The notes under the pieces were generated by a model. That model did no database searches. It was not told where the DNA came from and worked only from the letters and a program-made list of their open reading frames with translations. A stretch of 64,000 nt of DNA from an uncultured Phycisphaerales bacterium (GTDB lineage: Bacteria; Planctomycetota; Phycisphaerae; Tepidisphaerales; Tepidisphaeraceae): NCBI GenBank assembly GCA_963758525.1, contig CAVWVQ010000003.1, positions 672,001-736,000 of the forward strand, written 5' to 3'. Within the stretch, counting starts at the first letter, position 1. The number at the start of each line of letters is the position of its first letter. Made by a program: the position numbers and the translations under genes. Below are positions 14,735 to 34,026 of the stretch, one piece after another.

Positions 14735-15226
14735 TTGAACGAGCGGCCGGTGTATGCGACAGGCTGCGTGGGCGCGCTCCTGGCGATCGCCATTTTTTCA
14801 ATGTGGCGGCTCCTCCCTCGCCATCCCCGTAATCTCGTCGGCCCGGGCCGGGCGTTTTTCACCACCGATGATGGCAAGACCTGGTTCACCGGGCAGGCGA
14901 CCGATATTCCCCCGCTCGCTTGCGGCGGCAAGACTGCCTATTGGGTTGAGGTCTACCGGTGCTCGCGCCGCTCGTCATTTGCCGTGAACCTCGAAACATT
15001 CGATCCCGCGGACAAGGCGAAAGTGGACCAAGCGATCGCCAGCGGTCGCGACTGGAACGATGTGGCGCACCTGATGTCCGGGCTCCATATGCTGGTCAAG
15101 AAGCCGGGAGATGAGAATTGGATCGCGGAAATCCCCGAGAATGAGAGCCGTTTTCGACAGATCATCCGACCGGTGTGTCCCGATGGATCGGCAGACGGAC
15201 TTGAAAAGGTCGATCCGAATGAATGA
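14735..15226 (+). CDS. Uncharacterised membrane-anchored 'pilin-partner' protein, copy 1 (in-frame TAG at 14729 after an upstream ATG at 14708)
   Basis: N-terminal TM helix, AFFTTDDGKTWF, YRC, LVKKPG..W, CPDGSADGLEKVDPNE; aligns by eye with three downstream copies. Confidence 0.75.
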   Translation: MNERPVYATGCVGALLAIAIFSMWRLLPRHPRNLVGPGRAFFTTDDGKTWFTGQATDIPPLACGGKTAYWVEVYRCSRRSSFAVNLETFDPADKAKVDQAIASGRDWNDVAHLMSGLHMLVKKPGDENWIAEIPENESRFRQIIRPVCPDGSADGLEKVDPNE

Positions 15227-15662
15227 CGCTGCGGCGCCTTGCCGATGCGGCCGTGTACTTGTGCAGTAAGAAATTTGTTGCAGCGGTTCTGGAATAGCGA
15301 CCAGTCCTTGATGACGGAGCGCACATTCCAACGCCCTTTACGCTTCGATCGTCGGGAGTTTGCCAATCGAATAATTACAGTAATCGAGGCGTCGATAAAG
15401 TGCCGAGTTCGGACGGAACGGGCTCCGCGACGTATCAGGCAGGAGATTCCGGCGCAGGTAACACCAGTTTTCAGAATGGTTTACCACGACGAATTGAGTG
15501 AACCCGGGCACGCAAGGTGACTTCGCGCAGATTGTCAGGCAATTATCGTTGTGCAAATGGTCATCCGGTCGCTAGGATACCAGATAGCGAGGATGCCAAA
15601 ATTGTTTTCATTTCCCTGCCGGCGAGGATTCGATGATCGCAGGACAAGATTCAACGTCGAGA

Positions 15663-16565
15663 ATGAACCATGGCACGATGAGCAGACGTCTGCGGGAGCT
15701 TAGCCGCTCCCGCCGGCCCTTACACGGTTTTACCCTCGTCGAGCTTCTCGTGGTCATCGGAATTATCGCACTCTTGATATCGGTGTTATTGCCCGCGCTG
15801 AGCAAGGCAAGAATCGCGGCGCAGCAAATCAACTGCCTCTCGAACATTCGTCAGTTGTCGAACGCGGTGCAGATGTACGCCAATGACAACCGTTGGCGGC
15901 TTCCGCGATATACAACCAACGTCGCCACCACCGAAACGCCGAAATGGAAGATGAATTGGGTTGGGCTCATCTTTCCGTACACGAATTACAATGCCCAGAT
16001 TTTCGAGTGCCCGATGCGCACTTTTATCAGCACCACGATCGGCACGCAGACAATCGGCAATATGACATACAAGGCGCGGCTTTGCTATGCGGTGAACGGC
16101 ATGATCGGTGGTGGTCAGACAAACCAGAATCAGAGCTGCCCGTTTGGTCCGGTCTACGATCACGCGAGCACGATATCGCCCGGTTACTTCGACGACAGCA
16201 ACGAACATACGTTGAAACTCTCCGATGTTGCGTACGATACCATCATGCTGACAGAGTCAATGCGCGCGGGAGGCGAGCAAAGCATTTCTGAATTCAACAC
16301 CGTACCGAATGGCTACGCCGGCATCCGCAGCGTGTCGTCGAGCAATCACAACGGAAGATCCGCATCCTTCGCTTATGCCGACGGACATTGCGAGACTGTC
16401 AGCATTCAGTATATGATGTACGACTCACATTACAGGGTTGATACAGCCAACACGCCGTCTGTTGGCGTTGTCGGCAATAATAACTCCGGAGCCGGAGATG
16501 TGCTTATCAACTACAATAACACAAATCAGCCCCAGGGATACTGGACTGCCAGAGGGAACGACTAG
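15663..16565 (+). CDS. Prepilin-type N-terminal cleavage/methylation protein with H-X9-DG motif (DUF1559-like), copy 1
   Basis: Basic leader then [54 protein letters not shown]. Start could be 15633, 15663 or 15678. Confidence 0.9.
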
Positions 16566-16599
16566 ACGGTCAGCTGTGCAGATTCAGAAGGATCCCACA

Positions 16600-17109
16600 A
16601 TGGGCGTTCGCGAGAGGCTAAACGAAAAGCCCGCGCTGGCAGCCGCTGGTATTGTCATCCTGCTGACAGTCGCAGCTTATTTTTGCTGGCGAGCGATCGA
16701 TCATCCTCCCAGGGCAATCGCTGGGCTGGGTAAGGCTTTTTTTTCAACGGATGATGGCAAAACGTGGTTCACGGCCCCAGCCTCGAACATCGCGCCCTTC
16801 GACGACAATGGCACGACAGCTTATCGCGTTGAGGTCTATCGTTGTTCGCACGGTTCGGCTTTTGTCGTCAATCTGGAAGCTTTCAGCGCGGAGGACAAGG
16901 CAAAAATTGAGCGCACCATCGCCGACGGACAGGACAGCAGTGCAGTGCGCGGGATGGAAGCGGACGCTCCTCCTCTCGTGAAGAAGCCCGGAGACCGTGA
17001 GTGGGTAAAAATGACCGAGAAGAACGAAGCGCGATATCGCGCAATCGCAAGGCCGGTCTGTCCGGACGGATCGGCCGACGGACTGGAGAAGGTGGATCCA
17101 AATGAGTGA
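16600..17109 (+). CDS. Uncharacterised membrane-anchored 'pilin-partner' protein, copy 2
   Basis: AAGGA then ATG 16600 (MGVRERLN); TM helix; AFFSTDDGKTWF, YRC, VKKPG, CPDGSADGLEKVDPNE. Confidence 0.85.
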   Translation: MGVRERLNEKPALAAAGIVILLTVAAYFCWRAIDHPPRAIAGLGKAFFSTDDGKTWFTAPASNIAPFDDNGTTAYRVEVYRCSHGSAFVVNLEAFSAEDKAKIERTIADGQDSSAVRGMEADAPPLVKKPGDREWVKMTEKNEARYRAIARPVCPDGSADGLEKVDPNE

Positions 17110-17198
17110 TCCCGACGGAATCCGAATATGTGGAATGGCTTTTTTTTTTGGCGTCACGAGAGTGACGCGTCTCGGTCTGTTACGAGGAATGAAATCCG

Positions 17199-18125
17199 AT
17201 GAGCCTCCCGAAACGCACATCCAATTGCTGGCCTGCTGCCCGGAAACGAAATCGCATTTCGAGGCTCAAAGCATTTACGCTCGTTGAACTGCTGGTTGTG
17301 ATCGGCATCATCGCCACGCTGATCGCACTGCTATTGCCCGCGCTGAGCGCCGCCCGCTTCGCCGCAGGCCAACTCAAGTGCCTGTCGAATGTCCGGCAAC
17401 TGTCACAGGTGATCAATATGTACGCTGCGGACAATCGAGGGTATTTGCCCCGATTCAGCATCACATGGTACAATACGAGTTACACGACGATTTCCGCTCC
17501 AAAATGGAAATACAATTGGACCGGCCTCATCTTTCCCTACACGAACAAAAGTACGAGCCTCTTCGAATGCCCCTTGAGGCAATTCACCAGCAATAACGTG
17601 GGACAGATGTCCTCCTCCATCGTGGGGAATGCGGTCTATCTGGCCAGGCTTTCTTATCAGGTCAACGGAATCACCGGTGGAGGCAATGCGAATAAATGCC
17701 GGGCGTACGATCACCCATTCGGCGAAGTTTACGATGTCTATGTACCTGCCAATGGGGGCTTTAATGATTCAGAAAACACAATGCAGATCAGCAACGTTTC
17801 TCCACGCTGCATTATGCTTCTTGATGGATGGCTCGACGAGACAAGCATCAAGATTTTTGGCAATGATAAGGTTGACTCAAACACAAACGGTTATGGATAT
17901 GGGGAAGTCACTGGAATCCCTGTCAGCAGCCATAACGGCAAGTCGGTCTCAATTGCATTCTTTGACGGCCACTGCGAAACGGTGCAAACCAGCTATTTAC
18001 TCTCCGACGTGAACTACGGACACAGCGCGGTACAAGCCAATGGAGACTTAAATATACCTTATAATAACACCGGTTTTGGGGGCAAGGGATTTGGGGGCTA
18101 TTGGGGCGCCGAGTTTGCGCCTTAG
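17199..18125 (+). CDS. Prepilin-type / H-X9-DG protein (DUF1559-like), copy 2
   Basis: [56 protein letters not shown] upstream of the ATG. Confidence 0.9.
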
Positions 18126-18164
18126 CAGTCCTTGCGAAGCTAAGGTTTTGCCGGCCGGTCCGCT

Positions 18165-18704
18165 TTGGCAACATTGCACCTACCTGGAGCATCGACGGCT
18201 TTGCGCGACGTTCTAAACAAATACCCGGGTTATGCGATTGCAGGCGTGGTTGTCATCATGCTGGCAGGATTTTACACTGCATGGAAGTTCATGGATCAGG
18301 GGCCTCGGAAAATCCAAGGCCTGGGACAAGCGTTCTACTCTGTGGACGACGGCAGCACCTGGTTTCGAGCGCCAGCATCCAATATTCCTCCATTCGATCA
18401 CGACGGCAAGCTTGCTTACGAAGCGGAAGTCTTCGAGTGCAGGCACAGCTCAGCTTTTGTGGCAACTCTGCAAAGCTACCCTTCCAACGTCAAATCTCGT
18501 CTGGACAAAGCCATCGCCGACAACCGCCCCACCGCCGAGATTCTCGACATCGAAGCCAGGAATCCGCCGATGGTGAAAAAGCCGGGCTCCTCGGCTTGGA
18601 TTAGCCTTACCCCGCAGACCGGACCGCAATACATGCAGGCGGTCTCTCCAATTTGTCCCGACGGCTCGGCCGACGGTTTGGCGCGAGTGAATCCCAACGA
18701 TTGA
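18165..18704 (+). CDS. Uncharacterised membrane-anchored 'pilin-partner' protein, copy 3 (ACG at 18195 where paralogues have ATG)
   Basis: TM helix; AFYSVDDGSTWF, FEC, VKKPG, CPDGSADGLARVNPND. Start uncertain: TTG 18165, ACG 18195 or TTG 18201. Confidence 0.8.
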   Translation: MATLHLPGASTALRDVLNKYPGYAIAGVVVIMLAGFYTAWKFMDQGPRKIQGLGQAFYSVDDGSTWFRAPASNIPPFDHDGKLAYEAEVFECRHSSAFVATLQSYPSNVKSRLDKAIADNRPTAEILDIEARNPPMVKKPGSSAWISLTPQTGPQYMQAVSPICPDGSADGLARVNPND

Positions 18705-18834
18705 CCAGATTTGTCCGCATCATGAGGAAATGCTGGAATTTCGAAAGATTGTCAGAAAATAATGCTTGTTTTGAAAGACGCTACGATGCTAAAATGCTGA
18801 ACGGCGAAGAGAGACGAACTTTGTCCACTTCCTG

Positions 18835-19791
18835 TTGGGAATCAACCAATTGAATACGGACACGAGACACTTGACCGAGCGAACATTAAAACGACGTGTT
18901 CCGCATCGCAATGCCGGTTTTACGCTTGTAGAGCTTCTGGTGGTGATCGGCATCATCGCAATTCTCATATCGATTTTGCTTCCGGCACTCAGTAAGGCGC
19001 GGATCGCCGCCGGCCAAATCAGCTGCCTATCAAACGTTCGTGAGCTGAGTTCGGCAATTCAAATGTATGCCAACGACAATAAGTTCTATCTGCCGAGGTG
19101 GACTGCCGCTTTTCCTAACCACGCCGTTACATCGACATGGAGATGGGGGTGGTGTCCTCTTGTGCTTCCGTACACCAACTTCAATGTGAAGGTATTCGAG
19201 TGCCCTGTCCGCCAGTATTACGAGACGACTAGCCCGGGCACGATCACGTTAGGGGTGGCCAAATACCAGGCGCGACTCGGTTATCAAGTCAATGGGATGC
19301 AGGGTGCCGGCAACGCCTCAAAGTTGAGGACCTATGACCACCCATTTGGAGCGGTATACGACTATCCGCTTGCGTCGAATTCATTCCAGGATTCAATGAA
19401 CACCATGAAGATCACGCAGGTGGGCCCGTACACGATCATGATGACCGATTTCGTACGGGGCGGCGGTGAGCAGAGCTGCAATGATAACGGCAGCTTCACC
19501 ACGAGCGCCAAGGGCGCCACGGACTATTCGGATATCAGAAACGTCTCTGCGAGCAGCCATTACGGAAGGTCGGCGTCGATCGCGTTCTTTGATGGACACG
19601 CGGAAACCGTCTCCACAAGTTATCTGCTGTATGATGCGACTTACCGCATCAACAGTGGCGCAAGTCCTACGGTTGGACCAGTCGCCAACGACGCCAGCGA
19701 AGCTGGCGATCTGCTCATCAATTTCTACAACAGCAGTTCTCCACCTCCCAGCCGTTGGAGCGCACAGTGGTACCCCGGCGCGCCGTTTTAG
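18835..19791 (+). CDS. Prepilin-type / H-X9-DG protein (DUF1559-like), copy 3
   Basis: [55 protein letters not shown]. Only TTG starts are available (18835, 18850, 18871). Confidence 0.9.
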
Positions 19792-19826: not shown

Positions 19827-20333
19827 ATGGGAATCCGCGAAATCTTGAACCAGAAGTCAGAGTACGCGATTGCCGGGATCGTTGTCGTTATAATCATCGC
19901 TGCAATAATCTGCTGGCGATCTCTCCCGGGTGATCCCAGAGGAATCACTAAATTGGGGAAGGCATTCTATTCAACCGACGACGGGAAGACCTGGTTCGTC
20001 GACGATGCCTCGCACATCCCTCCATTCGACTACGACGGTGCAACCGCCTATCAAGCCCAAATCTTCAAGTGCGCCCACGGCGGACAATTCATCGCTTATT
20101 TGCAGAGCTACAGCGCGGCTGACAAAGAAAAAATCGAAAAGGCCATTGCGGACGGTCAGTCCGGAACCGACGTCCGCGGCTTGGAACTCATTCTTGGCTG
20201 CGCGGTGAAGAAGCCTGGCGAAAGCAACTGGGTAAAGAACACCCCTGCAAGTAGCGCACTCTATGCGGAAATCACCAAACTAACTTGTCCGGACGGCACG
20301 GGCGACGGGCTTGAAAAGGTCGATCCGAACTAG
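19827..20333 (+). CDS. Uncharacterised membrane-anchored 'pilin-partner' protein, copy 4
   Basis: MGIREILN, TM helix, AFYSTDDGKTWF, FKC, VKKPG, CPDGTGDGLEKVDPN. Confidence 0.85.
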   Translation: MGIREILNQKSEYAIAGIVVVIIIAAIICWRSLPGDPRGITKLGKAFYSTDDGKTWFVDDASHIPPFDYDGATAYQAQIFKCAHGGQFIAYLQSYSAADKEKIEKAIADGQSGTDVRGLELILGCAVKKPGESNWVKNTPASSALYAEITKLTCPDGTGDGLEKVDPN

Positions 20334-20472: not shown

Positions 20473-21513
20473 ATGTGGACAATCAAATATCGCTTTACGG
20501 CGGCGGCCACTTTCGCATTAGCGACCTTCATCTCTTCGGCCGCGTCCGGAGTTGAGATGCGAAGTCTGTTCGGCTCATCAACGCCTCCGCGGCCGAGGGC
20601 CTATAAAACGATCGCCGCCGTTGAACTCAAGCTCTACTTCTTCACACCGCCCGACTGGAAGCCCGCTGATCATCGATCGGCTGTCGTGTGCATTCACGGC
20701 GGCGGCTGGACTTCGGGAACGGCTGATACGTTCTTCCCTCATGCACGCTACTTCGCCTCGCGCGGCGCGGTCGGGTTCAGCATCGAATACCGGCTGGTCA
20801 AGGCGGATGGTCCGGTCGTCGCGGACTGCCTGGCCGACTGCAAATCGGCTATTCGCTACATCCGCTCGCATGCGGCCGAGCTTGGGGTCGACCCGGATCG
20901 CATTGCCGTGCTCGGGGATTCAGCCGGAGGGCACCTGGCGGCAGCGCTCGGCACCATCGACGGATTCGATGATCCCGCCGACGACCTGTCCATCAGCGCC
21001 AAGCCAAACGCGATGGTCCTCTGCAACGCCATTTTTGATTTCAACCAGGACGGATTCATCAAAACCATCATCGGTGGAGCGGCTTTGGCGAAACATCCGG
21101 CTCCGGCGGCGACACAGCCTACGCCGCAACAGTCGGACCTGGCGCGTCAACTCTCACCGCTCTTCTCGGTGCGGCCGCACGATCCACCGGCGCTGGTGAT
21201 GCATGGCTTGGACGATCATGTGGTGTCGCCCAACCAATCGCGTCAGTTCGACGCTGCGATGAAAGCAGCTGGCAATCATTGTGAACTGATTTTGTTGGAA
21301 GGTTGCCGTCACGCGTTCATCGTTCCCAGGTATACCGCCCCGGAGAAAGTTGTCGTCGGCGCCATCCGATCGGCGGACATCTTCCTGGCCAGCCTCGGCT
21401 ACCTCGCCGGCGATCCCACCCTCGAGGTTTCCGAACCGCCTGCCTGGGTCATCAAGCAAAAGCCCGTCAAAGCGAACGAAGCAACTCCCGCTGCGACGCA
21501 ATCAACAAGGTGA
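20473..21513 (+). CDS. Secreted alpha/beta-hydrolase (HSL-like/BD-FAE-like carbohydrate esterase)
   Basis: Signal peptide; IHGGGW, GDSAGGHLA, HG.DD.VV, H.F motifs. Confidence 0.85.
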   Translation: MWTIKYRFTAAATFALATFISSAASGVEMRSLFGSSTPPRPRAYKTIAAVELKLYFFTPPDWKPADHRSAVVCIHGGGWTSGTADTFFPHARYFASRGAVGFSIEYRLVKADGPVVADCLADCKSAIRYIRSHAAELGVDPDRIAVLGDSAGGHLAAALGTIDGFDDPADDLSISAKPNAMVLCNAIFDFNQDGFIKTIIGGAALAKHPAPAATQPTPQQSDLARQLSPLFSVRPHDPPALVMHGLDDHVVSPNQSRQFDAAMKAAGNHCELILLEGCRHAFIVPRYTAPEKVVVGAIRSADIFLASLGYLAGDPTLEVSEPPAWVIKQKPVKANEATPAATQSTR

Positions 21514-21561: not shown

Positions 21562-24500
21562 ATGAAAATAAGAAACTTACTCTGTAAAGCGGCTGTCATC
21601 GCTGGCGTGTACACGGCGGGTGCTTTTCCGATCGCCCTGCATGGGGCTGAGGAAGTACCGCTTCCGGCAACACCGCCGCAGGATCAGGGGCTCCCCTACA
21701 CGCGCACTGCCCGCGCCAGAGCATTGGAAAATATTCGCAATTGCCTGGTGGTTTTCCCCGGCAGTCGATATGCCTATGTCAACGGCCTGGAGGTTCGCCT
21801 CGACGAGAAGAACTGGCATGACGAGGCGCTGGCGAAGGATGGAACTGTTTTCGTTCCGCAGAGCGCGGTCTCGCTGGTGGAGTTGGCAGACGTCAAGGCG
21901 GGCCCTGCTCCTTCCTACCTTGCCGACCGGTGGATCTACACGCTGTTGCGACCTGCCGTCCTCCTGCCCCGGGGTGTTGCGACGATTGACGTCGACGGCC
22001 GGCCTTACGTCGACTTGATCGCCTACGCCAGGGCATTGCGGATCAAGACGTATCAGCATGCGCGCGGGTTTGTCCTGATCGGCAGCGATCCGCCAACGCT
22101 CGAGAAGCTTTCGCCGCCCCTGCTCGATTCGATGGTCACGCTTTTCGACACGCCCGAGAAGTTTGCGGATCCGGACATCGCCACCAGATACATTCCCACT
22201 CTCATCAGGCAGGGGAAGTGGACCGACCATGTGAAGGTCACCGCCGAACAGCTCAAGATTCTCAACGGGCCGGAGACGAAGTGGCCGACGGCGCCGCAGT
22301 CGTCATACGACTTCACGGGATTCAATTACAAATTACTCGGCTCCAAAGTTCCGCCGCCGGGGGTCTATCCACGTGTTCTCTTCAGCCCCGAGGACGTGCC
22401 GATGCTGGCGGAGCGAATCAAGAGCAGTCGCACCGGCCAGATGGCGCTCATTGAGATGAAGTATCTCTTCGAGAAAAGCTGGTGGAATCCCAAGACCAGC
22501 GACGGAGTGATTTTCCAGAAGCTTGCCAGCGGGGACGTCGCGGGGCTGGAGTTTGACTCTCCGCCGAATATCTCCCCCACCGCCATTTCCAATTTGTTCA
22601 AGGGCCAAAAGCCTGGCATTTTCAATACACACATCCAATACAACCCTGAATGCCTGACGGCGATGGCGCTGTATTGCCTTCTGACCAATGACGACGTGCA
22701 TGGACGTCAGGCGGCCGCCGCAATCGCAAGCTTTTACAAGTTGCGCGAGCCGATCCTCGACGAGGTCAACCAGATCAGCGACACGGAGTTTGGAGGGGTT
22801 TATGTACGCCCCAATGGCGAGACAATCACCATGGCGGGCAACGGCGCCGTCACACACTGGCGTACGGTGCAAAACGTCATTTCGCACATGAATCTGGGCC
22901 TTTCTCTCGACTTTGGCGGCAAGTGGATGACGCCGGAAGAGAAGGACGTCATGCGCCGCGTCATCGTGAAGGCGACCTACGGCAAACGCCCGTATGGTCA
23001 GGACGGATCGATCCGTTTCCGCGATGTGAATTGGGTCGCCTGGGATCTGCCGCCGTTTCTCGCTGTGACGGCGATCGAAGGTCTGGAGGGATTCGACCGC
23101 GAGGCGTACGAGTCCGACTGCGCCACTGTCCGGGCGTTCTGTGATTGGGGAATCGACGAAAACGGCGTGATCTACGAGAGCAACGGGAAGACACCAGGAA
23201 GCCTGCAGTTTCAGACCCTCTCCATGATCACGCTCGCCCGTCGCGGTGAAAACCTTTTCGGTCATCCCCACTGGCGGAAGTTGCTGGAGGGCCAGATCGA
23301 GATGACCTCCCCCAGCGGCCGCGTGACGGTCAACAGCGGCACGCAATACGTTCCCTACAGCCGCCAATACTTCTCGCCGCAGATGATCGATGAATACAAG
23401 GCCTTCTTTCCCGACGAGCGCAACGCGGACTACCTGCTCGGCCGCGCCAAAATGTTTGTGGAAGAGGGCATGGACCAGGAGACGATGCGCGAGTGGTCGC
23501 TCTTTGACTTCTCACCCGACGAGTACCGGGCGAAGGTGGCCAGCATCCTACGGCTTCGCCTGCCGAGCCCGACCTATCCCGGCTTCGTCCATGGCATGCT
23601 CTACGACACCGACATCCAGCCCACAACACGTGCCGATCTGAAGCTGCCGCTCGACTTCAACGACCCTATCCATGGCGTCTTCTCCAGCTACAGCGACCAG
23701 ACTCCCAATGCGACGTGGATCAACATGATGGTGCGGCCCGATCATTACATTGGCGCCGGCCATCATCATTCCGATGCCGGCATGTTTCACTTCTCCGCGC
23801 TGGGTGTGGACTGGTTCACGCAAACGCAGTTCAGCGGGAATTACGAGGGGAAATACTACAACCTGGTGCAGGTGGACGGTCATTCCGAGCCAGAAGTGAT
23901 GCCGGGAGGAAACGCCTACCAGGCCGCCGCGACCTACCTCGGCGCCAACTCAAGTGCTAATGGAGCATTCGGCAGCGCGGATCTGACCGACTCCTACAGT
24001 TATCGCTGGCAGACCCAGCCGGCGCCGGTCTGGCCGCCCAATTCCAGCTCGATGGGATGGGAGATGGAGCCGTCCCCGCGCATCCTCGAGATGTTTGCCG
24101 GGACGGCGCATTACAAGATGCGCTTCTGGTGGGCCAACTACAACTACTCCAATTACATGGCCACCAGCCGCGCACCGTGGAATCCGATGCAGTATGTCTA
24201 TCGCAGAGTGGGACTCGTCCGCGGCAATCATCCCTACGGCGTGGTGATTGACGACCTGAAGAAGGACGACGCAACGCATCTGTACCAGTGGGTTGCCATG
24301 CTCAATGGCGGGGTCTGGCAGGCGAAGGTCGACGGACTTCCCGCAGGCCAGATCGCGCTGGCCTTCCGCGAGCAGGATCCGAAATCGAACGGAATGATCC
24401 GCGCGGGCGAGCCGCCGATCGTTCCCCAAAATGGCGAGCCGTTGCTGCTGGTTTGTGCGCTGGGCGCCGGCGCCGATGCTGGCGGTCATCTGCCGATCGA

Positions 24501-24780
24501 GGTCACCACAGAAACCGGCCCGCCGGACAAGAAGGGCGCTGAACAACTCTACGCCCGGCTGGCCATCAACCACTCGGGAGCCGACGTCCACTTTAAGGTG
24601 CTTCTGATTCCGTTCAGAGCCGGCGAAGTGCTTCCCAGTCTGTCGTGCGATGCGGGCGCAAGCAAAGCGACGCTTGCATGGTCTGATCAGAACGACGAGC
24701 TGAATTTTGCATCTGACGCCAAAGGGCCGTCCGGAATCAGCGTGAGCCGCGGAGGTCAGAGCGTGCTGACCTCGAAATGA
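21562..24780 (+). CDS. Heparinase II/III-like secreted protein, paralogue 2 (1072 aa, extra N-terminal domain)
   Basis: Signal peptide; PPPGVYPRVLF, NWVAW, IEGLEGFD, YESNGK, ARRGENL, GHHHSDAGMF, GLVRGNHPY..IDD.KKD. Confidence 0.7.
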   Translation: MKIRNLLCKAAVIAGVYTAGAFPIALHGAEEVPLPATPPQDQGLPYTRTARARALENIRNCLVVFPGSRYAYVNGLEVRLDEKNWHDEALAKDGTVFVPQSAVSLVELADVKAGPAPSYLADRWIYTLLRPAVLLPRGVATIDVDGRPYVDLIAYARALRIKTYQHARGFVLIGSDPPTLEKLSPPLLDSMVTLFDTPEKFADPDIATRYIPTLIRQGKWTDHVKVTAEQLKILNGPETKWPTAPQSSYDFTGFNYKLLGSKVPPPGVYPRVLFSPEDVPMLAERIKSSRTGQMALIEMKYLFEKSWWNPKTSDGVIFQKLASGDVAGLEFDSPPNISPTAISNLFKGQKPGIFNTHIQYNPECLTAMALYCLLTNDDVHGRQAAAAIASFYKLREPILDEVNQISDTEFGGVYVRPNGETITMAGNGAVTHWRTVQNVISHMNLGLSLDFGGKWMTPEEKDVMRRVIVKATYGKRPYGQDGSIRFRDVNWVAWDLPPFLAVTAIEGLEGFDREAYESDCATVRAFCDWGIDENGVIYESNGKTPGSLQFQTLSMITLARRGENLFGHPHWRKLLEGQIEMTSPSGRVTVNSGTQYVPYSRQYFSPQMIDEYKAFFPDERNADYLLGRAKMFVEEGMDQETMREWSLFDFSPDEYRAKVASILRLRLPSPTYPGFVHGMLYDTDIQPTTRADLKLPLDFNDPIHGVFSSYSDQTPNATWINMMVRPDHYIGAGHHHSDAGMFHFSALGVDWFTQTQFSGNYEGKYYNLVQVDGHSEPEVMPGGNAYQAAATYLGANSSANGAFGSADLTDSYSYRWQTQPAPVWPPNSSSMGWEMEPSPRILEMFAGTAHYKMRFWWANYNYSNYMATSRAPWNPMQYVYRRVGLVRGNHPYGVVIDDLKKDDATHLYQWVAMLNGGVWQAKVDGLPAGQIALAFREQDPKSNGMIRAGEPPIVPQNGEPLLLVCALGAGADAGGHLPIEVTTETGPPDKKGAEQLYARLAINHSGADVHFKVLLIPFRAGEVLPSLSCDAGASKATLAWSDQNDELNFASDAKGPSGISVSRGGQSVLTSK

Positions 24781-25073: not shown

Positions 25074-26846
25074 CAAAGCGCGCCGGCATCATGCGACTTT
25101 ATTGGCGAAGATTGCGATCGCCATGATGATGCTGATTGCAGCGCGCTCATCCGCCGCCGAGTATCAATTCTCCGTCCCCACCGGCCCGCGCGATAGCCGC
25201 GCATTTCTTTGGATTCCCCCGCAGTGCCAGCATGTGCGCGGAATTCTCCTTGCCAGCCAGGTGATTCTTGAAAAGCGCGTCTGCGATGATCCGATCATCC
25301 GCGACGCATGCGCGCGTGAAAACCTCGCGATCATCATTTTGTATCGCAGCCCCTTTGGTGAATTTCATTACCACCGCGATCTGCCGCGGGCAAAAGCCAT
25401 TGAGAAAATCCGCGAGCTGGCAGCGGATCAGAAGATCGACGTCCAAATTGCTGACAAGAAAAGCGGAGCATCGCCACCCGATGCAAATCACTCCGACATA
25501 TCCAACGGCGAAACAGCAGATCAGATTCTCCAACGCATTCTCGACCGACTCGCTGGCGAGTCCAGCTATTCCGAAATCTCCACCGCACCGCTGCTAACCC
25601 TCGGCCATTCCGGCGGCGCCATCTTCGCCTGGAACGTCGCCTACTGCTGGCCGCAACGTATTCTCGGTCTGATCGGGCTGCATTCAGCGGTGATTCTCCC
25701 GCCCCCCTGGGATCCCAAGGCAACACCGGCTGGATTCCCCGCGCTGTGCATCAGCGGGGAATACGAGAGTTGGGGTAATCCCAGCGAACCGCTCGACAAG
25801 CACTGGCGCTGGCTCCGCGGCGGAATCCTCAACATGCGCGGCTGCTACGACGCCCAGGCGTGCGAGGTGGTTCAGCCGGGCTGCACCCACTTTAATTGGG
25901 ACACTCCACTCGCACAGGTCACGGCGAAGTTCATCGAGAAGGCTGCCCGCTATCGCATTCCTGCCGACGCTCCGGGGAACGAGACCAACCCAACGCAGCC
26001 CGCGCCCTGAAAACGCTGCCGATGGATTCTGGATGGCTGACGGATGTCGAAATGATGTCTCCCAGCCACTACCCCCCCGCTCCTTACTCCCAGTTCAAGC
26101 ACGATCCATCGCTCGGCTTCTGGCACATGGATGAGGAGATGGCGCAGGCAATCGAGAATTTCCCCAACTCCTATGGCGGAACGAAGGATCAGCGCGTCAC
26201 GTTTGTGCAGGACGGAAAGCCGGTCCCCGCAAAGTGGATTGATGAGCTGAAGTTCGAGCCGATCGACGACGGGATGACCGTAAAGCTCGCGGCAGACTTT
26301 TTAACTGAGACGCCGCAGGGCGTCGCCGGCGCGGGCCAACTGCTCGGACACGCCCCCGGACCCATCAAATTTCGCCTCATCGGCGGCTGGGGAGGCGGCG
26401 GCGAGCAGACCGGACCGGATACGTTTCGGATCCGCTTCGACCACTTCGGTCTCTCGCAGGGCTGCTGCAATATGCAGGTGATGGCCTACCAGGAGGGGGA
26501 CGCCATCTATAAATACGCCGAGCAGCCGTGCCAGATTTCTTTTCCTGAGAAGAACGCCGCGGGGGCAAAACAGACAATCAGCTTTCCGCAGATCGGATCG
26601 GTCAAGTGCACCGAGTCAATGATCCACCTGGGGGCTACGTCAGACTCAAAACTTCCGGTTAACTATCTGGTTCGTTGCGGCCCGGTCGAAGTAGACGGTG
26701 AGAACCTCCGCCTTACGCCCATCCCTCCGCGCAGCAAGTTTCCGATCAAGGTGACGGTGGTGGCCTATCAATGGGGTCGGCCGATCCCGCCGCTGGTGCA
26801 GACCGCGACGCCGGTGGAGCAAACTTTTTCAATCGAGAAGCCATGA
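24874..26846 (+). CDS. Uncharacterised secreted hydrolase-like protein A (GHSGG elbow, C-terminal beta-rich domain); one frameshift at ~26005; start uncertain
   Basis: AFLWIPP, LGHSGG, then LKTLPMDSGWL ... KVTVVAYQWGR in the next frame; colinear with intact paralogue 27058-28677. Break is in a CCC run. Confidence 0.7.
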
Positions 26847-26914
26847 ACGAATCGGCAGGAATTCAATCGCCCCGCGCGACCCTCGTATCCTACCGGCATG
26901 ACAGCGCGCTCTTT

Positions 26915-27032
26915 CCCCCTCTCCCGGTACTCCGGGAGAGGGCAGGGGTGAGGGTGATTTCGGATACGAACGACTGTCGACATTCCGAATCACCCTCACC
27001 CCAACCCTCTCCCGGAGTACCGGGAGAGGGGG
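26915..27032. repeat. CCCTCTCCC-family palindromic element, second full copy
   Basis: CCCCCTCTCCCGGTACTCCGGGAGAGGGCAGGGGTGAGGGTGATT ... AATCACCCTCACCCCAACCCTCTCCCGGAGTACCGGGAGAGGGGG. Confidence 0.85.
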
Positions 27033-27057: not shown

Positions 27058-28677
27058 ATGGTGGCGCTGTTTTGCTGCCTGTGCGGCAGCGCCCAGGCTT
27101 TTTGGAATTCGGAATATCAATGGGGGATCGAAATTCCCAAGCCGGCCAACGATCCTCTCGTCTGGAACAAGACCGATGCATTTTTGTGGGTGCCTCCCAA
27201 GTCACAGCACATCCGGGCGGTGTTGCTCGCCCCCGCGAACATTATCGAGCGGCGGATCTGCGACGATCCCATCATCCGCGCGGAAGCGGAGAAGGACGAT
27301 CTCGCTCTGGTCTATTTCCAGGCGGGCTGGAAGAGCCCGATCATGGAAACGCCGCGACTGCTCGAGTTCGTGCAGTCGGTGCTCGATCAACTGGCGGTGA
27401 AATCGGGATACGACGAACTTCGAACCGTCCCCTGGATCACGATTGGCCACTCGGGAAACAGCCAGTTCTGTCAGGCGATGGCCCGCCAGAAACCGGAGCG
27501 AACGCTGGCGAATATCGTCATCAAAGGCGCCTTGCCGGGAGTGGCGAAGGACGGGAACACATCCGGGCTGGTCGGCGTGCCGATCCTTTTCGTGACCGGG
27601 CAGTTCGAGGAAGTGATGCCGCCCGGGAAAGTGCGGGACGCCTGGTGGGGGGTGCAGATGAAACGCTTTGCCGACGCCAAGGCGGCGGTTCCGCAGGCGC
27701 TGATCACCGGGATGGAAGATCGCAGCCATGGACATTTGAACTGGTTTCCCGACATGTCCCGTTTTGTGGCTCTGTACATCCACAAGGCAATGGCCGCTCG
27801 ACTGGGCGATTCCGATTTCACGACGCTCAAGACGGTTCCATTCGACAGCGGCTGGCTGAGCGATCCGGCCGAGGTGAACCCGCCGGCGCCGGTCAGGGAG
27901 TACAAGGGAAATCCGCAGCAGGCGTTCTGGCACTTCGACGAGGAGATGGCGCAGGCATGGCAGACGCTTTACGACCGTGATCGAGGCAAGAAGGAACAAC
28001 TGCTGGCCTTCACGCAGGACGGCAAAATCTCGCCCTGGTGGAACGGTTGGGCGCTGCAGTCGTATGAATTTCGTCCGCTGGCAGATGGCATTTCGTTCAC
28101 CGCCGATGCAACGTTTCGTGACCAGGTCCCGCAGCCCTTTGCCGATGCCGGCACAAAGCTTGGGCACTCCACGAGCGGTCCAATCCAGTTCCAGGTGCTC
28201 GGTTGGGCCGGGGCGACTGAGCAGACCGGGCCCAACCAATTCCGCGTCCGTTTCGATCGCGAAGGGGTGAATGGCCGCACGCTTCATGTGCTGCTTGGGG
28301 CGATTCATCCTGGTGACGCGGAGTACCGCGAGACGGTGGCGGTCGCATCATTCGATCTTCCCGGCGGCAACCATGAGGGGACGAAGCAGAAGCTCACATT
28401 CGCGCCGATTGCGGATGTTCCCGCGGGAACCACATCGGTGGCTCTGCATGCCAGTTCCGATTCGGGGCTGAAGGTCGATTACTACGTTTCGTATGGGCCG
28501 GCGGTGATTGAAGGCGACGCGATTCGCCTGATGCCGATTCCCGCCAGGGCGCGCTTTCCCATCGAGGTGAAAGTGACGGCTTATCAGTGGGGCCGCTCGA
28601 TGGCTCCGAAGATCGCGAGTTCGGATTTTGTGACGCAGACGTTTCACATTGTGAAAGCCGCTTCACCGGGGAAATGA
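27058..28677 (+). CDS. Uncharacterised secreted hydrolase-like protein B (paralogue of 24874-26846)
   Basis: Signal-like VALFCCLCGSAQA; AFLWVPP, IGHSGN, GQFEE, GHLNW, DSGWL, GP.QFR.RFD, KVTAYQWGR. Confidence 0.75.
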   Translation: MVALFCCLCGSAQAFWNSEYQWGIEIPKPANDPLVWNKTDAFLWVPPKSQHIRAVLLAPANIIERRICDDPIIRAEAEKDDLALVYFQAGWKSPIMETPRLLEFVQSVLDQLAVKSGYDELRTVPWITIGHSGNSQFCQAMARQKPERTLANIVIKGALPGVAKDGNTSGLVGVPILFVTGQFEEVMPPGKVRDAWWGVQMKRFADAKAAVPQALITGMEDRSHGHLNWFPDMSRFVALYIHKAMAARLGDSDFTTLKTVPFDSGWLSDPAEVNPPAPVREYKGNPQQAFWHFDEEMAQAWQTLYDRDRGKKEQLLAFTQDGKISPWWNGWALQSYEFRPLADGISFTADATFRDQVPQPFADAGTKLGHSTSGPIQFQVLGWAGATEQTGPNQFRVRFDREGVNGRTLHVLLGAIHPGDAEYRETVAVASFDLPGGNHEGTKQKLTFAPIADVPAGTTSVALHASSDSGLKVDYYVSYGPAVIEGDAIRLMPIPARARFPIEVKVTAYQWGRSMAPKIASSDFVTQTFHIVKAASPGK

Positions 28678-28783: not shown

Positions 28784-31295
28784 ATGACGAAGCTTGCTCT
28801 CGCATTCCTCACGTTGATGTGCACCGCGCCCTTGCTGGCCTCCGCCCGCGACGCACCGCTGCGCTGCCTCCCCGGCGAGCCGAGCGCGGACGATGTGCTG
28901 AACGGGAAATACCCGTTTCCGCCATCGCCGGCGGTTGAGGCGCATGATGACTACACCGGCTTTGTTAAAGATCGGCTGACGAAAGTTCCACCGCCAGGCG
29001 TCCATCCGCGCATTCTCATCGGCCCCGACGATCTGCCCGACTTGCGGAAGCGTCTGAAGGAAACGGAAACCGGCCGCACGCTTCTCTCCAATCTCCGCAG
29101 CCGAATGGACGCAGCCGTTCGCAATCCGAACTTCTGGGGAAGCGACCTGTACGCGAAGCTCGCCGCGGGGGATGCCGGTGGCGCGCAGCGACTCCTTAAC
29201 GAGCATCATGGAATGCCGGAACCCGTCGGTCACTACCAGCCGTTCATCGGATCCTGTCTGGAAATGGAGTCCTTCGACGCGCTGGTGAGCGAAGATGCCG
29301 AGAAGGGAAAACGCGCCGGCAAGGCGCTGGCGACGTTCTGCCGAATGATCCAGCCCGCGGTCGAGAATGCCTTGAGCCAACCGCTGGGGGATGATGTCTG
29401 GCGCGTAAAGGTGACCGGTCCGACCACGGGCGATTGGTCGTCCGATCAGGGTGTTCGCGAACTGGTCGGATATCACCTTCTCGGCTACGCCTACGACTTT
29501 GCCTACAACTTCATGAGCGATGAAGATCGCGCCGCTGCCCGGCATCTCATTGCCACGATCATCGCCGGCCATGTCTGGATGGGCGCGCGACTCCCCCACC
29601 ATTGGCGCAACTGGAACTGGATCATGGTGGGGATGGGTGAGCCGTTGCTCTCGCTGGCCATTGAAGGAGAAGAGGGCTACGACCCGCGCGTGTACAAGAT
29701 GGGCGTTCAAATCGCCCGCGACTATTGCACCTACGCCATTTCCCCCAGTGGCGCCTCGACCGAGGCGGTGGGGTATACGCAATTTGGTTTTGTCTGGGGA
29801 GCGCCATTCATGGTGGCCGCCGCACGGCGCGGGGACAACCTGCTGGTGCAGAGCCATCATCGCGCCATGATCGACTGGTATCTCCAGACGATGGAGCCGT
29901 ATGGCAAATTGTGGCAAAGCCATGGGGACGGCGGTGTCACCGGCCCCGCGGTCTGGACGATGGCAATGTGGAAGTATTTTTATCCTGGCGATCCCAAAGT
30001 CGACTACCTCTGGCAAAACGCGCTGCATGCCGAAGGCGTCGAGCAACTCAAGACGAAGATCCACCAGGTAGAGGCGATGATCTGGGCGTCCGATCCAGAC
30101 AAGGATGCCAGCGGTCAGCCGATCAATTACGAAAACGGCGCGAAGCTGAGTGCGCCGCTGACGTGGTTTGATCCGATCCGCAGTTCGCTGATTGCCCGCA
30201 GCGGATGGTCGCCGGACGCGGCGGCGTTGGAGTTTGAGTGCCGCACCGACTCGGTCGGTTCCAGCCATGAGCACGCCGACCGGGGAAATTTCACCTTCAC
30301 CGCGCTCGGCCGCGACTGGGCGCGGGAGAGCTTTCGATCCATCGAATCGCGCCATCACGACTGCGTGCTGATCGATGGACTAGGCCAGGGCTTTTGGGGC
30401 GGGCCGGGCAAATGGCTCGGACTGAAAGACACTGGTTGGGCGCTGGTGGCCGGATGCGATGCGAAAGACGCCTACGACTGGTGGTGGCCCAAGGAAATCA
30501 CAACGGAAGATCCGGCGACGTTCATTCGCTTCAAATTTCCCAGGTGGGAATCGTATCTTCCGCAGGCCGAGGCGTTTCGCAAACAGTACGCCGGCGTCCC
30601 ACTGGAGCGCGACCCCCGGCCGTCGGTCGTGGCCCATTTCAAGGGATTTGAGCAGGGCGATCCGCGCATGTGGGACGAGGATTCCTGGCCGGTGCGCCTG
30701 CCGCACAATCCGGTACAACGCGCATTTCGATCGCTGGCATTCGTGCGCGAAGGGGACCCGTATCTCGTCGTTGTCGATGACATTCAAAAGGACGATCGCG
30801 AGCATCTCTACGAATGGCTGATGCAGACTGGTCCCGACACCGAGATGGCAAGTATCAAAGACAATGACATCATCCTCTGCGATGCCACGGTGCCGCGGCC
30901 CCGATGGCGTCGCCAAGCCGAGAAAGGGCGACCGTGAACTGCTCGTCCGCATCCTGCAAATGACCGACGCCGACCCGGGAACAGCGTATCAGGCGAAGCC
31001 CTCGGTTCGCCTGGAAGCATTTGAAAAGAAAGACACGACGTCGCCCGACGGCCGCTCGTTTGGTCTGGACAAACGGCTGGTGATTCCAAGCCGTTGCCTC
31101 GCGCCCAACTTCAAGATTCTCCTCTTCCCATTGCATGCCGGCGATCCGCTGCCGACCACAGCCTGGGACCAGAGCAACACGCACCTGATTCTCACCACCA
31201 GCCAGCAGAAGGACGAGATGACCTTCACCACCAGTGACGGCCGGACGAATCTTTCGATCCAGCGAGAGGGCAAGGAACCGACGGCCTTGCCGTGA
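28784..31295 (+). CDS. Heparinase II/III-like secreted protein, paralogue 3; one frameshift at ~30898
   Basis: Signal peptide; PPPGVHPRILI, NWNWIM, IEGEEGYD, ARRGDNL, SHEHADRGNF, PVQRAFR, VDDIQKD; C-terminal piece (LLVRIL...RLVIPS...FKILLFP) matches the paralogues. Confidence 0.7.
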
Positions 31296-31386
31296 TGGAA
31301 TGGAAGTTGGTCATTGCCCCTCTTCCGGAGCACCGAGACCGCTTGTTGTATGAGAGAACGAGAACAAATAGGAGTTTAAAGACCAT

Positions 31387-34026
31387 ATGCGATTTCAAAT
31401 ATCCTTTGCGGCCGCGTTGCTGCTTGCCGCAACATCGTCGTTCGCCAGCGAGCAATCTCCGTTCGCCGATAAGACGGCGGCTTCCTACTCCTCCTACAAC
31501 GACGACAAAGGGCATCCCGTTGAAATTCCCTGGGGTGACCTGAAGGCGAATGACTTCGGATCGCGAAAGATCGAGTTTGATGTCACCGGCGTCCGTCCGC
31601 TGCACCAGATTCCTGCGCCAGGAGTGCATCCTCGCATCTTCTTCACGCCCGACGATCTGCCGGACATCCGCCGACGGCTCAAGGAAACCCAATGCGGCCA
31701 GGCCGTTTGGAAAAACATTCTCTGCTGGACGGAGATGATGAAGGGCAACTACGACGACAAGGCCCAGTACGCGCAACCCGATGTGTGGAAAGGATCCTTC
31801 GGCGGACTCCACGGGAGGGTGCCGCTGTTCAGACTCGGGGTGAACGGTTCGCACGGCTACAACCACAATCAGGCCGCCCGCGAGCGATACCAGAAGCTGA
31901 TCGCCGGCGACATGACACAGGAAGTCGGCTTCTACTGGAACGTTTTTGCTCTTGAAGCATTTCGCTGCCTGATTGAGAACGATCAGAATGGTGCGAAGGA
32001 TTTGGCCAAGGCCGTCGTCACGTCCATGAAGATCGATCAGGCGAAGCGCGCAGCCGATCCGAAAGTGAAGCGCGCAGGCGAACCTCCCGATCAACCCGTC
32101 GGTGCATTCCAGCTCGCATACGTCTACGACCTGATCAACCAATGGCTCACGCCCGAGCAGCATAAAGCCATTCACGATGAGCTGGCGCTGGGTTCCTGGC
32201 ATCACGACAACTACGGCACATTCAACGAGGCCACCGCGTCACGCAGCAACTGGGCGACGTTCTCCTACTGGCTGATCGAAGTGCTCAGCATCGAAGATGA
32301 ACCTGGTTTCAACGACCTCAAAGTCCGCGGCATGTACCGCGGCTGGCGCGACCTGCTCACCTATGGATGGTTTCAATCAGGAGCCACCTACGAGGGCGAA
32401 GCCAAAAACCAGCTTGGCATGGACGGCATCATCCCGTTCGCGATGCGCACCAAACGATATGGCTTTGAGAATTTATGCGGGCATCCATATTTGCGTGCAT
32501 ATGCCGACAAGTTTTTGCCGCAGAGCATCATTCCAACGCTCGATGGATTCGTGAAGTATGACCTGCTCGGCGGTTCGCGCACCAAGGCGGGAGGATTCAC
32601 CCCCTGCGATCTGGTCGGGCTCAAGTACATGTTCCCCCAGGACAAGACCATCGACTGGGTCTATCGCTGCACCGTCGGAGAGGACTACCACAATGTGCCT
32701 GACCGCTGCGATGGGTATTACAACGGGCTGCTGTTTTTCGCGATCTTCGCCAGCGACTATGACGCGTCCAACAACAACCCCGCCAAACTCGATCTGGGCA
32801 ACACGTTCTTCTGCGGCGAACGTTCACTGATGATGACCCGCAGCGGATGGGACAGCAAAGACGCGCTGATGCTCAACTTGCACGTCCGCCAGGCCAACGG
32901 CGGTCATCCCTACGCCGATCGCAATTCCATCATGCTGACCGGCGCCGGTCGGGTGTGGTCGCCAATTGAAGGCTCGCGGGCTTTCGAGAATTTCAAGAAC
33001 AGCGTCATCGTCATTGACGGCAAGCCGCAGGAAGTTTCGGTTCCCGGGAGGATGGTCGATTTTCAGGATTCTCCGATGGCGACCTTCGCGGTGGGCGACG
33101 CCAAGTATTGCTGGGACTGGAATTGGAGAGTGCTGAACAAGCGGCATGGTTACTACACCGTTGCCGATGTGACCGCCAACCGCGTCGAGATTCCGCCCGG
33201 ATGGCAACCTGAAACGCACACCACCAACGATTTCGCCTATCTCAAGCTTCCGTACGCGTATCTGAATGTGCCGTTTTTCCAGCGCCCGGACTGGATTCTC
33301 CCGGCCGGCGCCATCTCGCCAGTGGTGCGGCAGCCTAATTATCCGGTGCGACGCGCATTTCGCACCGCCGGCATCATCCGCGGGCCGCACCCCTACGCGC
33401 TGGTGGTGGACGATTACCAGCGCGACGACAGCCCGGCCCATTATGACTGGAATCTGACGCTGGAGCCGGACATCCAGATCATAAGCATGAAGAAAACCGG
33501 CGAGCGCGAGATGGACATTCTCTTGAGCGGATCCAATCCCGATCAAAATCAGCCGCCGGCGAAAGAGCCGCTTCCCGCGAAGGCAGCCTCCGATGCAATC
33601 CCTGCCGGGCAGCCGGTGCTTCTGGTGCGTGTCCTGAACCGCAACGACCAGAAAGATGCCGATCCGACCATCGCCGACGTTTCGACGGATCCCAAGACAA
33701 AAGACGGCGCGGTGCGACGGCTGGTCATTCCCGCCGATGCGGTTTCGCCGGATTTCAAGATATTGCTCTGCCCATATCGGCAGGGCGAGGCGGTTCCGCG
33801 AACCGCATGGGCGGACAGCCAGCATACGATGCTCAACGTGGCGCTTGGAGATGCGAAAGACACCATCACGTTCGCACCCGGCCGCTCTGGCAAGACCGAT
33901 CTCTCCATTGCGCGCGAAGAGGGCGGAAGGCAGACAGTCCTGCTCAACGTCAATCAGCCAATCGAGCCACTGAAGGACGATGCGCCAGGGCCAGCGCCGG
34001 CCGCACGCCAACCGAGGCAAAACTGA
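31387..34026 (+). CDS. Heparinase II/III-like secreted protein, paralogue 4 (879 aa)
   Basis: AGGAG RBS, signal peptide; PAPGVHPRIFF, SNWATF, IEDEPGFND, YEGEAK, GGHPYADRN, AFRTAGIIRGPHPY..VDD. Confidence 0.7.
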   Translation: MRFQISFAAALLLAATSSFASEQSPFADKTAASYSSYNDDKGHPVEIPWGDLKANDFGSRKIEFDVTGVRPLHQIPAPGVHPRIFFTPDDLPDIRRRLKETQCGQAVWKNILCWTEMMKGNYDDKAQYAQPDVWKGSFGGLHGRVPLFRLGVNGSHGYNHNQAARERYQKLIAGDMTQEVGFYWNVFALEAFRCLIENDQNGAKDLAKAVVTSMKIDQAKRAADPKVKRAGEPPDQPVGAFQLAYVYDLINQWLTPEQHKAIHDELALGSWHHDNYGTFNEATASRSNWATFSYWLIEVLSIEDEPGFNDLKVRGMYRGWRDLLTYGWFQSGATYEGEAKNQLGMDGIIPFAMRTKRYGFENLCGHPYLRAYADKFLPQSIIPTLDGFVKYDLLGGSRTKAGGFTPCDLVGLKYMFPQDKTIDWVYRCTVGEDYHNVPDRCDGYYNGLLFFAIFASDYDASNNNPAKLDLGNTFFCGERSLMMTRSGWDSKDALMLNLHVRQANGGHPYADRNSIMLTGAGRVWSPIEGSRAFENFKNSVIVIDGKPQEVSVPGRMVDFQDSPMATFAVGDAKYCWDWNWRVLNKRHGYYTVADVTANRVEIPPGWQPETHTTNDFAYLKLPYAYLNVPFFQRPDWILPAGAISPVVRQPNYPVRRAFRTAGIIRGPHPYALVVDDYQRDDSPAHYDWNLTLEPDIQIISMKKTGEREMDILLSGSNPDQNQPPAKEPLPAKAASDAIPAGQPVLLVRVLNRNDQKDADPTIADVSTDPKTKDGAVRRLVIPADAVSPDFKILLCPYRQGEAVPRTAWADSQHTMLNVALGDAKDTITFAPGRSGKTDLSIAREEGGRQTVLLNVNQPIEPLKDDAPGPAPAARQPRQN

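Follow-up and report, generated by a model that had tools for sequence, protein, structure and literature searches.

Pilin/partner genes beside predicted polysaccharide lyases in a Phycisphaerales genome: a possible SusC/SusD-free utilisation locus

Introduction

In Bacteroidota, the genes for SusC and SusD lie beside those for the carbohydrate-active enzymes (CAZymes) of the same locus. How polysaccharide is taken up without SusC and SusD by bacteria of the Planctomycetes-Verrucomicrobia-Chlamydiae (PVC) group is an open question in the accessible parts of PMC8857213, which reports no SusCD in Verrucomicrobiota, and of PMC12078418. The latter summarises the planctomycete "fishing rod" hypothesis (Boedeker 2017), in which pili catch the polysaccharide, an idea that has so far come without named parts.

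The question is raised by a stretch of 64,000 nucleotides from an uncultured Phycisphaerales bacterium (assembly GCA_963758525.1, contig CAVWVQ010000003.1, here C3, positions 672001-736000), which I will call the window. Its genome (G000) is 6.47 Mb in length and 90.9% complete. Within the window, 13 plus-strand genes at 14735-34026 run in the order A1, B1, A2, B2, A3, B3, A4, esterase, L1, H1, H2, L2, L3, where B denotes prepilin-like proteins, A their partner family, L lyase-like and H hydrolase-like proteins. A reading made from the sequence only had proposed that this run is a SusC/SusD-free utilisation system, with the pilin/partner cassettes in the capture or sensing slot. I give about an even chance to the following form of that proposal: the run is the core of a SusC/D-free polysaccharide locus, in which three pilin heads of one type bind the glycan that the neighbouring predicted enzymes cut.

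Results

A pilin head type linked to lyase-like genes and a LacI regulator

The comparison covers 140 relatives of the same order (141 genomes with G000) for L, for the B1 head (the residues after the pilin helix), for the LacI sensor domain and for SusD, 120 relatives for partner family A, and 79 GTDB loci of L from other lineages, 63 of them outside the Bacteroidota and 16 within. L is present in five of the 140 relatives. The B1 head is present in three (G066, G006 and G074), which belong to three genera and are all L-positive (Fisher p 2e-5, uncorrected for kinship). The head was never found without L among the 135 L-negative genomes, two genus-mates of G000 are without both, and a profile of six head sequences, including those from the three genomes, brought in no further genome. 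The LacI sensor domain occurs in four of the 140, the same three included (at E<=1e-40, a threshold of my own choosing), and in all three the pilin adjoins a LacI of this type.

The order of the genes is rearranged from genome to genome, with 30-44% identity among the heads and 23-57% among the L proteins. In G006, where 6.4 kb separate L from the pilin, the order is L, LacI, L, esterase, LacI, pilin; G074 has GH29, LacI, A, pilin; and G066 has pilin, esterase, LacI and beta-helix genes on a short contig and LacI-L2-L3-L1 at the end of another. A fourth copy of the B1 head in G000, frameshifted, lies at C3:654.5 kb and precedes an H-like gene, and a Victivallales pilin among L genes matches the head profile weakly (E 4e-10). 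The B1 head type, unlike the cassette as such, is linked to L and to one LacI type. Because it is found only in L-bearing relatives, the head is likely a substrate-matched capture part.

The cassette itself does not show the conserved linkage to the lyase-like family that the sequence-only reading had suggested as a check: A is in 108 of the 120 relatives, as against L in five of 140, and none of the 79 loci from other lineages has an A gene within 10 kb of L. A general enrichment of pilins near L in other lineages was considered and rejected: 10 pilins were counted over 1.05 Mb there, against 61 over the 6.47 Mb of G000 (a rough comparison across taxa).

A second head type, specific to Verrucomicrobiota and with a C-terminal IWKWW, adjoins L in five loci (L018, L033, L063, L069 and L079).

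SusC, SusD and TonB receptors

In a domain scan of 48 open reading frames (ORFs) of the window, TonB receptors, SusD and ABC binding proteins were all absent and the sole transporter match was an SSS symporter, which bears out the earlier observation. SusD (PF07980) has no match in any of the 141 genomes, the same model detecting it in B. thetaiotaomicron. Nor does a linked TonB/SusD pair lie just outside the window: no TonB receptor was found within 60 kb of the run, and the closest to the window, at C3:767-770 kb and some 61 kb beyond the end of the run, stand with YfiR and sensor genes, not CAZymes. None of the seven TonB receptors of G000 comes nearer than 30 kb to an A gene. The neighbours scanned are YfiR/sensor, ABC, MFS, ExbBD or housekeeping genes, and at four of the seven TonB-like barrels (C3:766567-773014, C3:1523726-1528410 and C1:22240-28114) the companions are signalling genes of the YfiR or periplasmic-sensor kind instead of nutrient enzymes.

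In other lineages, a SusC-signature pattern is in none of the 79 L loci. For 14 of the 16 Bacteroidota L loci, 61 proteins were compared with Pfam; there was no SusD among them and a single TonB receptor family, which clustering places in three loci.

The lyase-like and hydrolase-like enzymes

All five L genes of G000 lie inside the window, and the paralogues are 24-33% identical. L and H have no Pfam match, although L2 and L4 reach the heparinase HepB model weakly, and sequence searches of the PDB with L3 and H2 returned nothing significant. The fold is more telling. A model of L3 (pLDDT 91, from 91 sequences) matches exo-heparinase 6ljl with Z 28.2 (rmsd 4.3, 610 residues aligned; Foldseek E 5e-17), 3a0o and 8khv with Z 26.1 and dermatan-sulfate epimerase with Z 25.9, at 10-13% identity. 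The top 12 rows of the fold search (Z>21) are lyases of that fold or dermatan-sulfate epimerase, and the matches include lyases of the PL15, PL17, PL21, PL35, PL39 and PL40 types. With the heparinase II/III-like clan of those families L3 shares an (alpha/alpha) toroid followed by a beta-sandwich (residues ~73-861) and invariant His residues at the domain junction; all 91 of the L3-type sequences keep H366, H499, H507, D511 and Y276, which are candidates for the catalytic His/Tyr pair. What sets L apart from the clan is the low structural identity and the want of a Pfam or PDB sequence match. In the model, then, L folds like the heparinase II/III lyases, lyase activity is predicted, and L is probably a new lyase family.

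H1 and H2 had been taken for hydrolase-like paralogues, rightly so, as the pieces of H1 match the N- and C-terminal halves of H2 (27% and 41%). The nearest named Atlas clusters to H2 are alpha/beta hydrolases (score 0.83-0.86, a lead only); otherwise searches of the Atlas with A and H gave hypothetical clusters only. The H family is in 29 of the 140 relatives. At several other loci its members directly follow a pilin gene or a pilin/partner pair (C3:4328306-4329928 and C3:652603-654462 in G000, G037:C41:28793 and G019:C320:30127).

The companions of L in the 79 GTDB loci are H (15 loci), GH43 (12), GH3 (8) and esterase (5), and GH29 stands beside L in 16 of 84 loci, the five loci of relatives included. 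The set of enzymes around L thus recurs as a module, with examples in Verrucomicrobiota, Bacteroidota, Lentisphaeria, Armatimonadota and Planctomycetota. One Bacteroidota protein of the L family carries a sorting domain of the type IX secretion system (T9SS).

The pilin/partner cassette

B1-B3 have a class III signal peptide (G↓F-x-x-x-E and a hydrophobic helix) with matches to PF07963 and TIGR02532, B2 lying slightly below the Pfam cut-off and above that of TIGR02532. The PF07596 domain is matched by B1 (23.7 bits vs a cut-off of 23.3), reaches 18 bits in B3 and has no match in B2, and the C-terminal motif is H-X10-DG-H where the family motif is H-X9-DG; close homologues of B carry the source name of "H-X9-DG" proteins. 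The class III signal and large paralogue family, and probably the DUF1559-type N-terminus and a form of the C-terminal H-Xn-DG motif, are shared with the DUF1559/SBP_bac_10 prepilin-like proteins of PVC bacteria, a family treated in the accessible part of PMC4807772. The best models for B are of GspG/ComGC type, with scores below cut-off, and the Verru_Chthon model TIGR02596 is reached with 20-28 bits vs a cut-off of 70, over the N-terminus only.

Partner family A has no Pfam, NCBIfam or PDB match. Its model consists of one transmembrane (TM) helix and a compact domain. A fold search with the whole model gave no Z>=5 among 48,161 chains, matching on the TM helix only, and Foldseek gave no E<=0.001; the query being the whole model, a new fold is not implied. 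Within the array the A copies are 46-54% identical pairwise and the B copies 49-54%, and the named homologues of both are from Tepidisphaeraceae/Phycisphaerae.

G000 has in total 61 pilin-like ORFs and 28 A genes. For 24 of the 28 A genes, a pilin motif lies on the same strand 1.35-1.91 kb before the end of the gene; conversely, such a partner accompanies 23 of the 61 pilins. The B heads (250-350 aa) are hypervariable, with dozens per genome and a median similarity of 0.03 among the 61 ORFs; over 19 intact pairs in G000, the similarity of A tracks that of the head (Mantel rho 0.34, p 2e-4), a pattern that either co-duplication or a cognate fit would produce. Family A comprises 2,578 clusters at 50% identity and, across the class, occurs in 61 of 201 genomes (G000 included) and in several other Phycisphaerae families. 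Extra A copies stand in cassettes in 38 of 50 loci from 10 genomes, a count in which three loci overlap another and which leaves out 13 further A matches; so do 18 of the 33 metagenome loci with enough flank, and distant families also have B followed by A. Of the 80 loci in the metagenome scan with A, most of them short, none contains L, FecR or the B1 head. B followed by A is a general cassette of the Phycisphaerae.

Solo A genes have other neighbours, ElaB-like in 13 and HldE-like in nine of 30 loci. Most relatives have a solo A at this HldE/ElaB-like locus (loci L105-L134), and in other families it lies by RibBA or S49 peptidase genes. The corresponding locus of G000 (C3:2338524-2341362) is without A, yet 28 copies lie elsewhere. 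That solo A accompanies a prepilin peptidase was entertained and rejected in view of these neighbours.

The surroundings of the cassettes in G000 are richer in CAZymes than those of random sites away from pilins. Glycoside hydrolases or polysaccharide lyases (GH/PL) are among the three nearest genes on each side in eight of 20 A sites vs one of 20 control sites (p 0.02); with esterases and carbohydrate-binding modules added, the counts are 11 and 2 (p 0.006). The scoring was by hand, and some sites overlap. Beside many cassettes lie large PATR proteins, the majority of which have PEP-CTERM-like tails. Parts for assembly are available in trans: one prepilin peptidase PilD (PF06750) at C3:1911846, four secretins, T2SSE, T2SSF and T2SSK genes at C3:610-623 kb (about 64 kb upstream), and a further E/F pair at C3:4.12 Mb.

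Eight close paralogues of a D-2-hydroxyacid-dehydrogenase-like gene (~355 aa) are found no more than 10.5 kb from a cassette, in many cases immediately in front of the pilin, and may encode a regulator or a sugar-acid reductase.

FecR/ECF pairs

Each of the 11 FecR-type anti-sigma factors of G000 is accompanied by an extracytoplasmic function (ECF) sigma factor and lies 0.8-8.9 kb from an A gene, against a background of 5.6% of G000 genes within 10 kb of one; none of the 11 is within 40 kb of a TonB receptor. The sites (C3:2682334-2684518, C3:3053041-3055255 and C3:3075521-3077816, for example) often include a giant PATR protein. The FecR proteins combine one predicted TM segment and a FecR domain with a lectin-like tail, of which there are at least three kinds, and rhamnosidases are nearby. 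They resemble ECF46 with its FecR/Laminin_G_3 anti-sigma factors, lectin-tailed and in a rhamnosidase context; in the portion of PMC7826278 (supplement) at hand, the published context of ECF46 is rhamnosidase and sulfatase, whereas that in G000 is pilin/partner cassettes.

Anatomy of the run and its surroundings

The features are collected in Table 1. The count of 13 plus-strand genes is confirmed if two frameshifted pairs are counted once each; the plus-strand run in fact extends two genes further, to a GNAT and a LEA_2 protein. Frameshifts are frequent among the genes of G000. Because short-read contigs restore one frame to each pair, with a 1-base insertion near 26004 (H1) and a 2-base insertion near 30893 (L2), the splits are probably assembly errors (one short-read contig per site, depth about 3). 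The products were all said to be exported or membrane-anchored, which holds for A (N-terminal hydropathy 2.1-3.4) and B and is not clear-cut for the esterase, L1 and H2, whose N-terminal hydropathy is barely or not above their internal peaks.

Table 1. Features of the run and related genes. Positions are those of the window unless a contig is named.
Feature	Position	Strand	Remarks
A1, partner-family protein	14735..15226	+	No pilin upstream; start uncertain (in-frame stop immediately 5' of its TTG)
B1, prepilin-like, DUF1559-type	15633..16565	+	Cleavage motif G↓FTLVE at 15726-15729; probable start 15678; head domain 15909-16562
A2, partner protein	16600..17109	+	One N-terminal TM helix and ~130-aa domain, two conserved Cys
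B2, prepilin-like, B1 head type	17199..18125	+	
A3, partner protein	18201..18704	+	ORF from 18165
B3, prepilin-like, B1 head type	18835..19791	+	Start uncertain
A4, partner protein	19827..20333	+	
BD-FAE-type alpha/beta-hydrolase esterase	20473..21513	+	
L1, lyase-like	21562..24780	+	N-terminal extension
H1, unnamed alpha/beta-hydrolase-like	25081..26846	+	GHSGG motif; split near 26004
H2, paralogue of H1	27058..28677	+	GHSGN motif
L2, lyase-like	28784..31295	+	Split near 30893
L3, predicted heparinase II/III-like polysaccharide-lyase fold	31387..34026	+	
SSS sodium:solute symporter	41711..44005	+	Sole transporter match in window
LacI regulator	45215..46240	+	Nearest relatives lie beside pilins of this type and L genes in three other genera
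L4, fourth lyase-like paralogue	51542..54091	-	
L5, fifth lyase-like paralogue	3076..5570	-	Four frameshifted pieces
D-2-hydroxyacid-dehydrogenase-like paralogues	C1:423357, C1:428647-429538, C2:2602, C3:3084303, C3:3860716, C3:4332310, C3:4742267, C3:4771904		

The spacers of the run measure 34-448 nt, and three of them contain a GC-rich, extragenic palindromic repeat with ~166 sites in G000 (in the window at 24909-25060, 26901-27030, 28710 and 37644). The repeat lengthens several ORF starts, the part of the H1 ORF at 24874-25080 being translated repeat. A scan for promoters and terminators did no better than chance (5 vs 7.5 expected; 25 vs 20). Given such spacers, repeats in three of them and a promoter scan at chance, the reading of the run as a single transcript is unsupported. 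A search for a common LacI-type operator found none. Two short motifs occur as exact pairs exclusive to the array, at 14479/15270 and 15529/18746.

By the domain scan, further genes of the window are GH29, GH95-like, GH43, GH3, GH28, beta-helix and GDSL, besides the symporter and LacI. To judge by the GH29, GH95-like, GH43, GH3, GH28, GH78 and GH35 genes in the neighbourhood, the substrate is likely a heteroglycan that is acetylated and contains uronate as well as fucose, xylose and rhamnose. Three other minus-strand features are worth recording. A MNT/HepT-type toxin-antitoxin pair lies inside the CAZyme cluster (9812-10466). An unnamed exported-looking protein of ~600 aa adjoins L4 (49548-51527), has homologues (30-68%) in six L loci, and is possibly another lyase. 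The gene at 61079-65803, which runs past the end of the window, encodes a 1,574-aa protein with a PilX-like N-terminus and beta-helix and lamin-tail domains that seems to resemble the giant minor pilins of the Verru_Chthon-cassette type.

Discussion

How might such a locus work? If the run is the core of a SusC/D-free polysaccharide locus, LacI at 45215 would induce it, and the single PilD-type peptidase would mature B, which a shared secretin/ATPase machine, for example the T2SS-like cluster ~64 kb upstream, would build into a pilus or pseudopilus. Partner A would sit in the inner membrane with its domain in the periplasm and serve B as a cognate loading adaptor or chaperone. The variable head of B would hold the glycan at the outer membrane or across it; cutting and deacetylation would fall to L, H and the esterase, and import of the products to the SSS symporter. 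The co-occurrence of head, L and LacI, the absence of SusD and the enrichment of CAZymes near A sites favour the proposal of a SusC/D-free utilisation system, and the want of a conserved linkage between cassette and L disfavours it.

Other observations weigh against it as well. Within the order, only one of the three related pilins adjoins an A gene (G074), and the L-bearing genomes G100 and G105 (87% and 82% complete) show no B1-type head. Pilins lie near L in eight of the 63 non-Bacteroidota loci, about the overall pilin density of G000. The best A match in each of 29 other genomes has no pilin upstream (five have less than 1.2 kb of flank), 12 of the 20 A sites have no GH/PL among their nearest neighbours, and in G288, of another Phycisphaerae family, a B-A-B-A-B-A array (L318, G288:C48:13855-18566) sits between the housekeeping genes mutY and alaS with no enzymes nearby. 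The natural swap, in which L would stand beside SusC/D in Bacteroidota, was not seen: the Bacteroidota L loci have no SusC/D pair within 10 kb. No ECF/FecR pair lies inside the window (the nearest is at C3:644-646 kb), and the FecR-cassette linkage is absent in five other multi-A genomes (G035, G060, G061, G015 and G044). Finally, the co-occurrence of head, L and LacI could come from one co-inherited island.

The Phycisphaerae may also have replaced SusC/SusD more generally by a modular pilus, with a shared secretin machine, swappable substrate-specific heads, family A (>2,500 clusters) as cognate loader and a head type that predicts substrate as SusD type does. I hold this extension only tentatively and, on balance, doubt it.

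Three other explanations have to be weighed. In one, which I consider rather unlikely, B and A bind no sugar and are cargo-specific secretion adaptors: they would bring the enzymes of the locus, along with large surface proteins, to a common type II secretion system (T2SS). The sub-threshold GspG/ComGC-type matches of B, the T2SS-like cluster upstream and the large PATR proteins beside many cassettes accord with it, and the layout of A (a single TM helix and a periplasmic domain) is reminiscent of platform proteins of the GspC/GspM type; in the whole-model search, however, A had no structural match to solved platform proteins. That L can be exported is indicated by the T9SS sorting domain of the Bacteroidota protein, and T2SS export of alginases is raised in the accessible part of PMC13274419. 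Such adaptors would likewise lead one to expect that head and enzymes occur together, but dozens of hypervariable heads and nearby sugar-sensing regulators fit glycan recognition at least equally.

Under another, which I count as unlikely, the heads are substrate-matched adhesins or sensors, and sugar enters by other routes. Attachment has precedents in the accessible portions of two papers, which call MUL2 of Akkermansia an attachment device (PMC13174399) and describe the type IV pili of Fimbriiglobus as adhesins (PMC11131199). FecR/ECF pairs by the cassettes of G000, with no TonB transducer nearby, would suit a sensor, but the window has no such pair, the linkage is missing in five relatives, and the lectin-like C-terminal domains of the FecR proteins may sense sugar directly, as for ECF46. 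That array and enzymes are mere neighbours on a co-inherited carbohydrate island, with head type unrelated to substrate, seems quite improbable: the link is in only three independent genomes with a different gene order in each, repeats occupy the spacers, no shared operator was found and many cassettes have no CAZyme neighbours, but the link has been kept through rearrangement and at 30-44% head and 23-57% L identity in three genera, the head was seen in none of the 135 L-negative genomes, and the weakly matching Victivallales pilin is inserted among L genes.

Read as the core of a SusC/D-free polysaccharide locus, the run has likenesses among known systems. Like the polysaccharide utilisation loci (PULs) of Bacteroidota, it groups degradative enzymes with a dedicated regulator and an inner-membrane symporter, and it has a variable module of two genes by the enzymes. 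Elsewhere in G000, ECF sigma/FecR pairs precede the two-gene module, as they precede susC in many PULs. The module here, however, is a prepilin with an inner-membrane-type partner in place of SusC/SusD, it needs a separate pilus/secretin machine, and its transport role is, unlike that of SusC/SusD, conjecture.

Closer in kind is the operon pgaptmp_000046-60 of Verruconatronum alginivorum, alginate-induced, in which a pseudopilin (one of 67 homologues in the genome) stands among heparinase II/III-clan lyases (PL15 and PL39) and an SSS symporter. As far as the accessible part of PMC13274419 goes, it differs in belonging to the Verrucomicrobiota, in being read in terms of T2SS export, in having no A-type partner described, and in employing known CAZy families rather than L. 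In MUL2 (amuc_1099-1102), too, pilin-like proteins are linked with glycan foraging in a PVC bacterium without SusC/D; there, by the same portion of PMC13174399, the locus is single and conserved, with PilM-like and archaeal-pilin-like parts, in contrast to the many variable, dispersed cassettes of G000. Model searches with B and A did not encounter the cassette-specific subunits of MUL2/Verru_Chthon (PilM-like, cassette proteins A-D).

Pili as catchers of glycan are thus an already published PVC hypothesis. The "fishing rod" passages of PMC12078418 hold neither a partner gene nor a match of head type to enzyme set, and neither partner family A nor head-to-enzyme matching was found in the literature searched, mostly without subscription papers. 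Three things appear to be undescribed: partner family A, L as a probably new family of lyases, and the module of matched head, lyase and LacI.

To the question of uptake without SusC/D, the locus brings a testable set that travels together, in which a single type of pilin head is joined by partners not described so far, by lyases of a probably new family and by a regulator. If heads are matched to substrates, the thousands of DUF1559-type genes would be markers of glycan niche, and the genes that neighbour them would offer a route to the discovery of enzymes.

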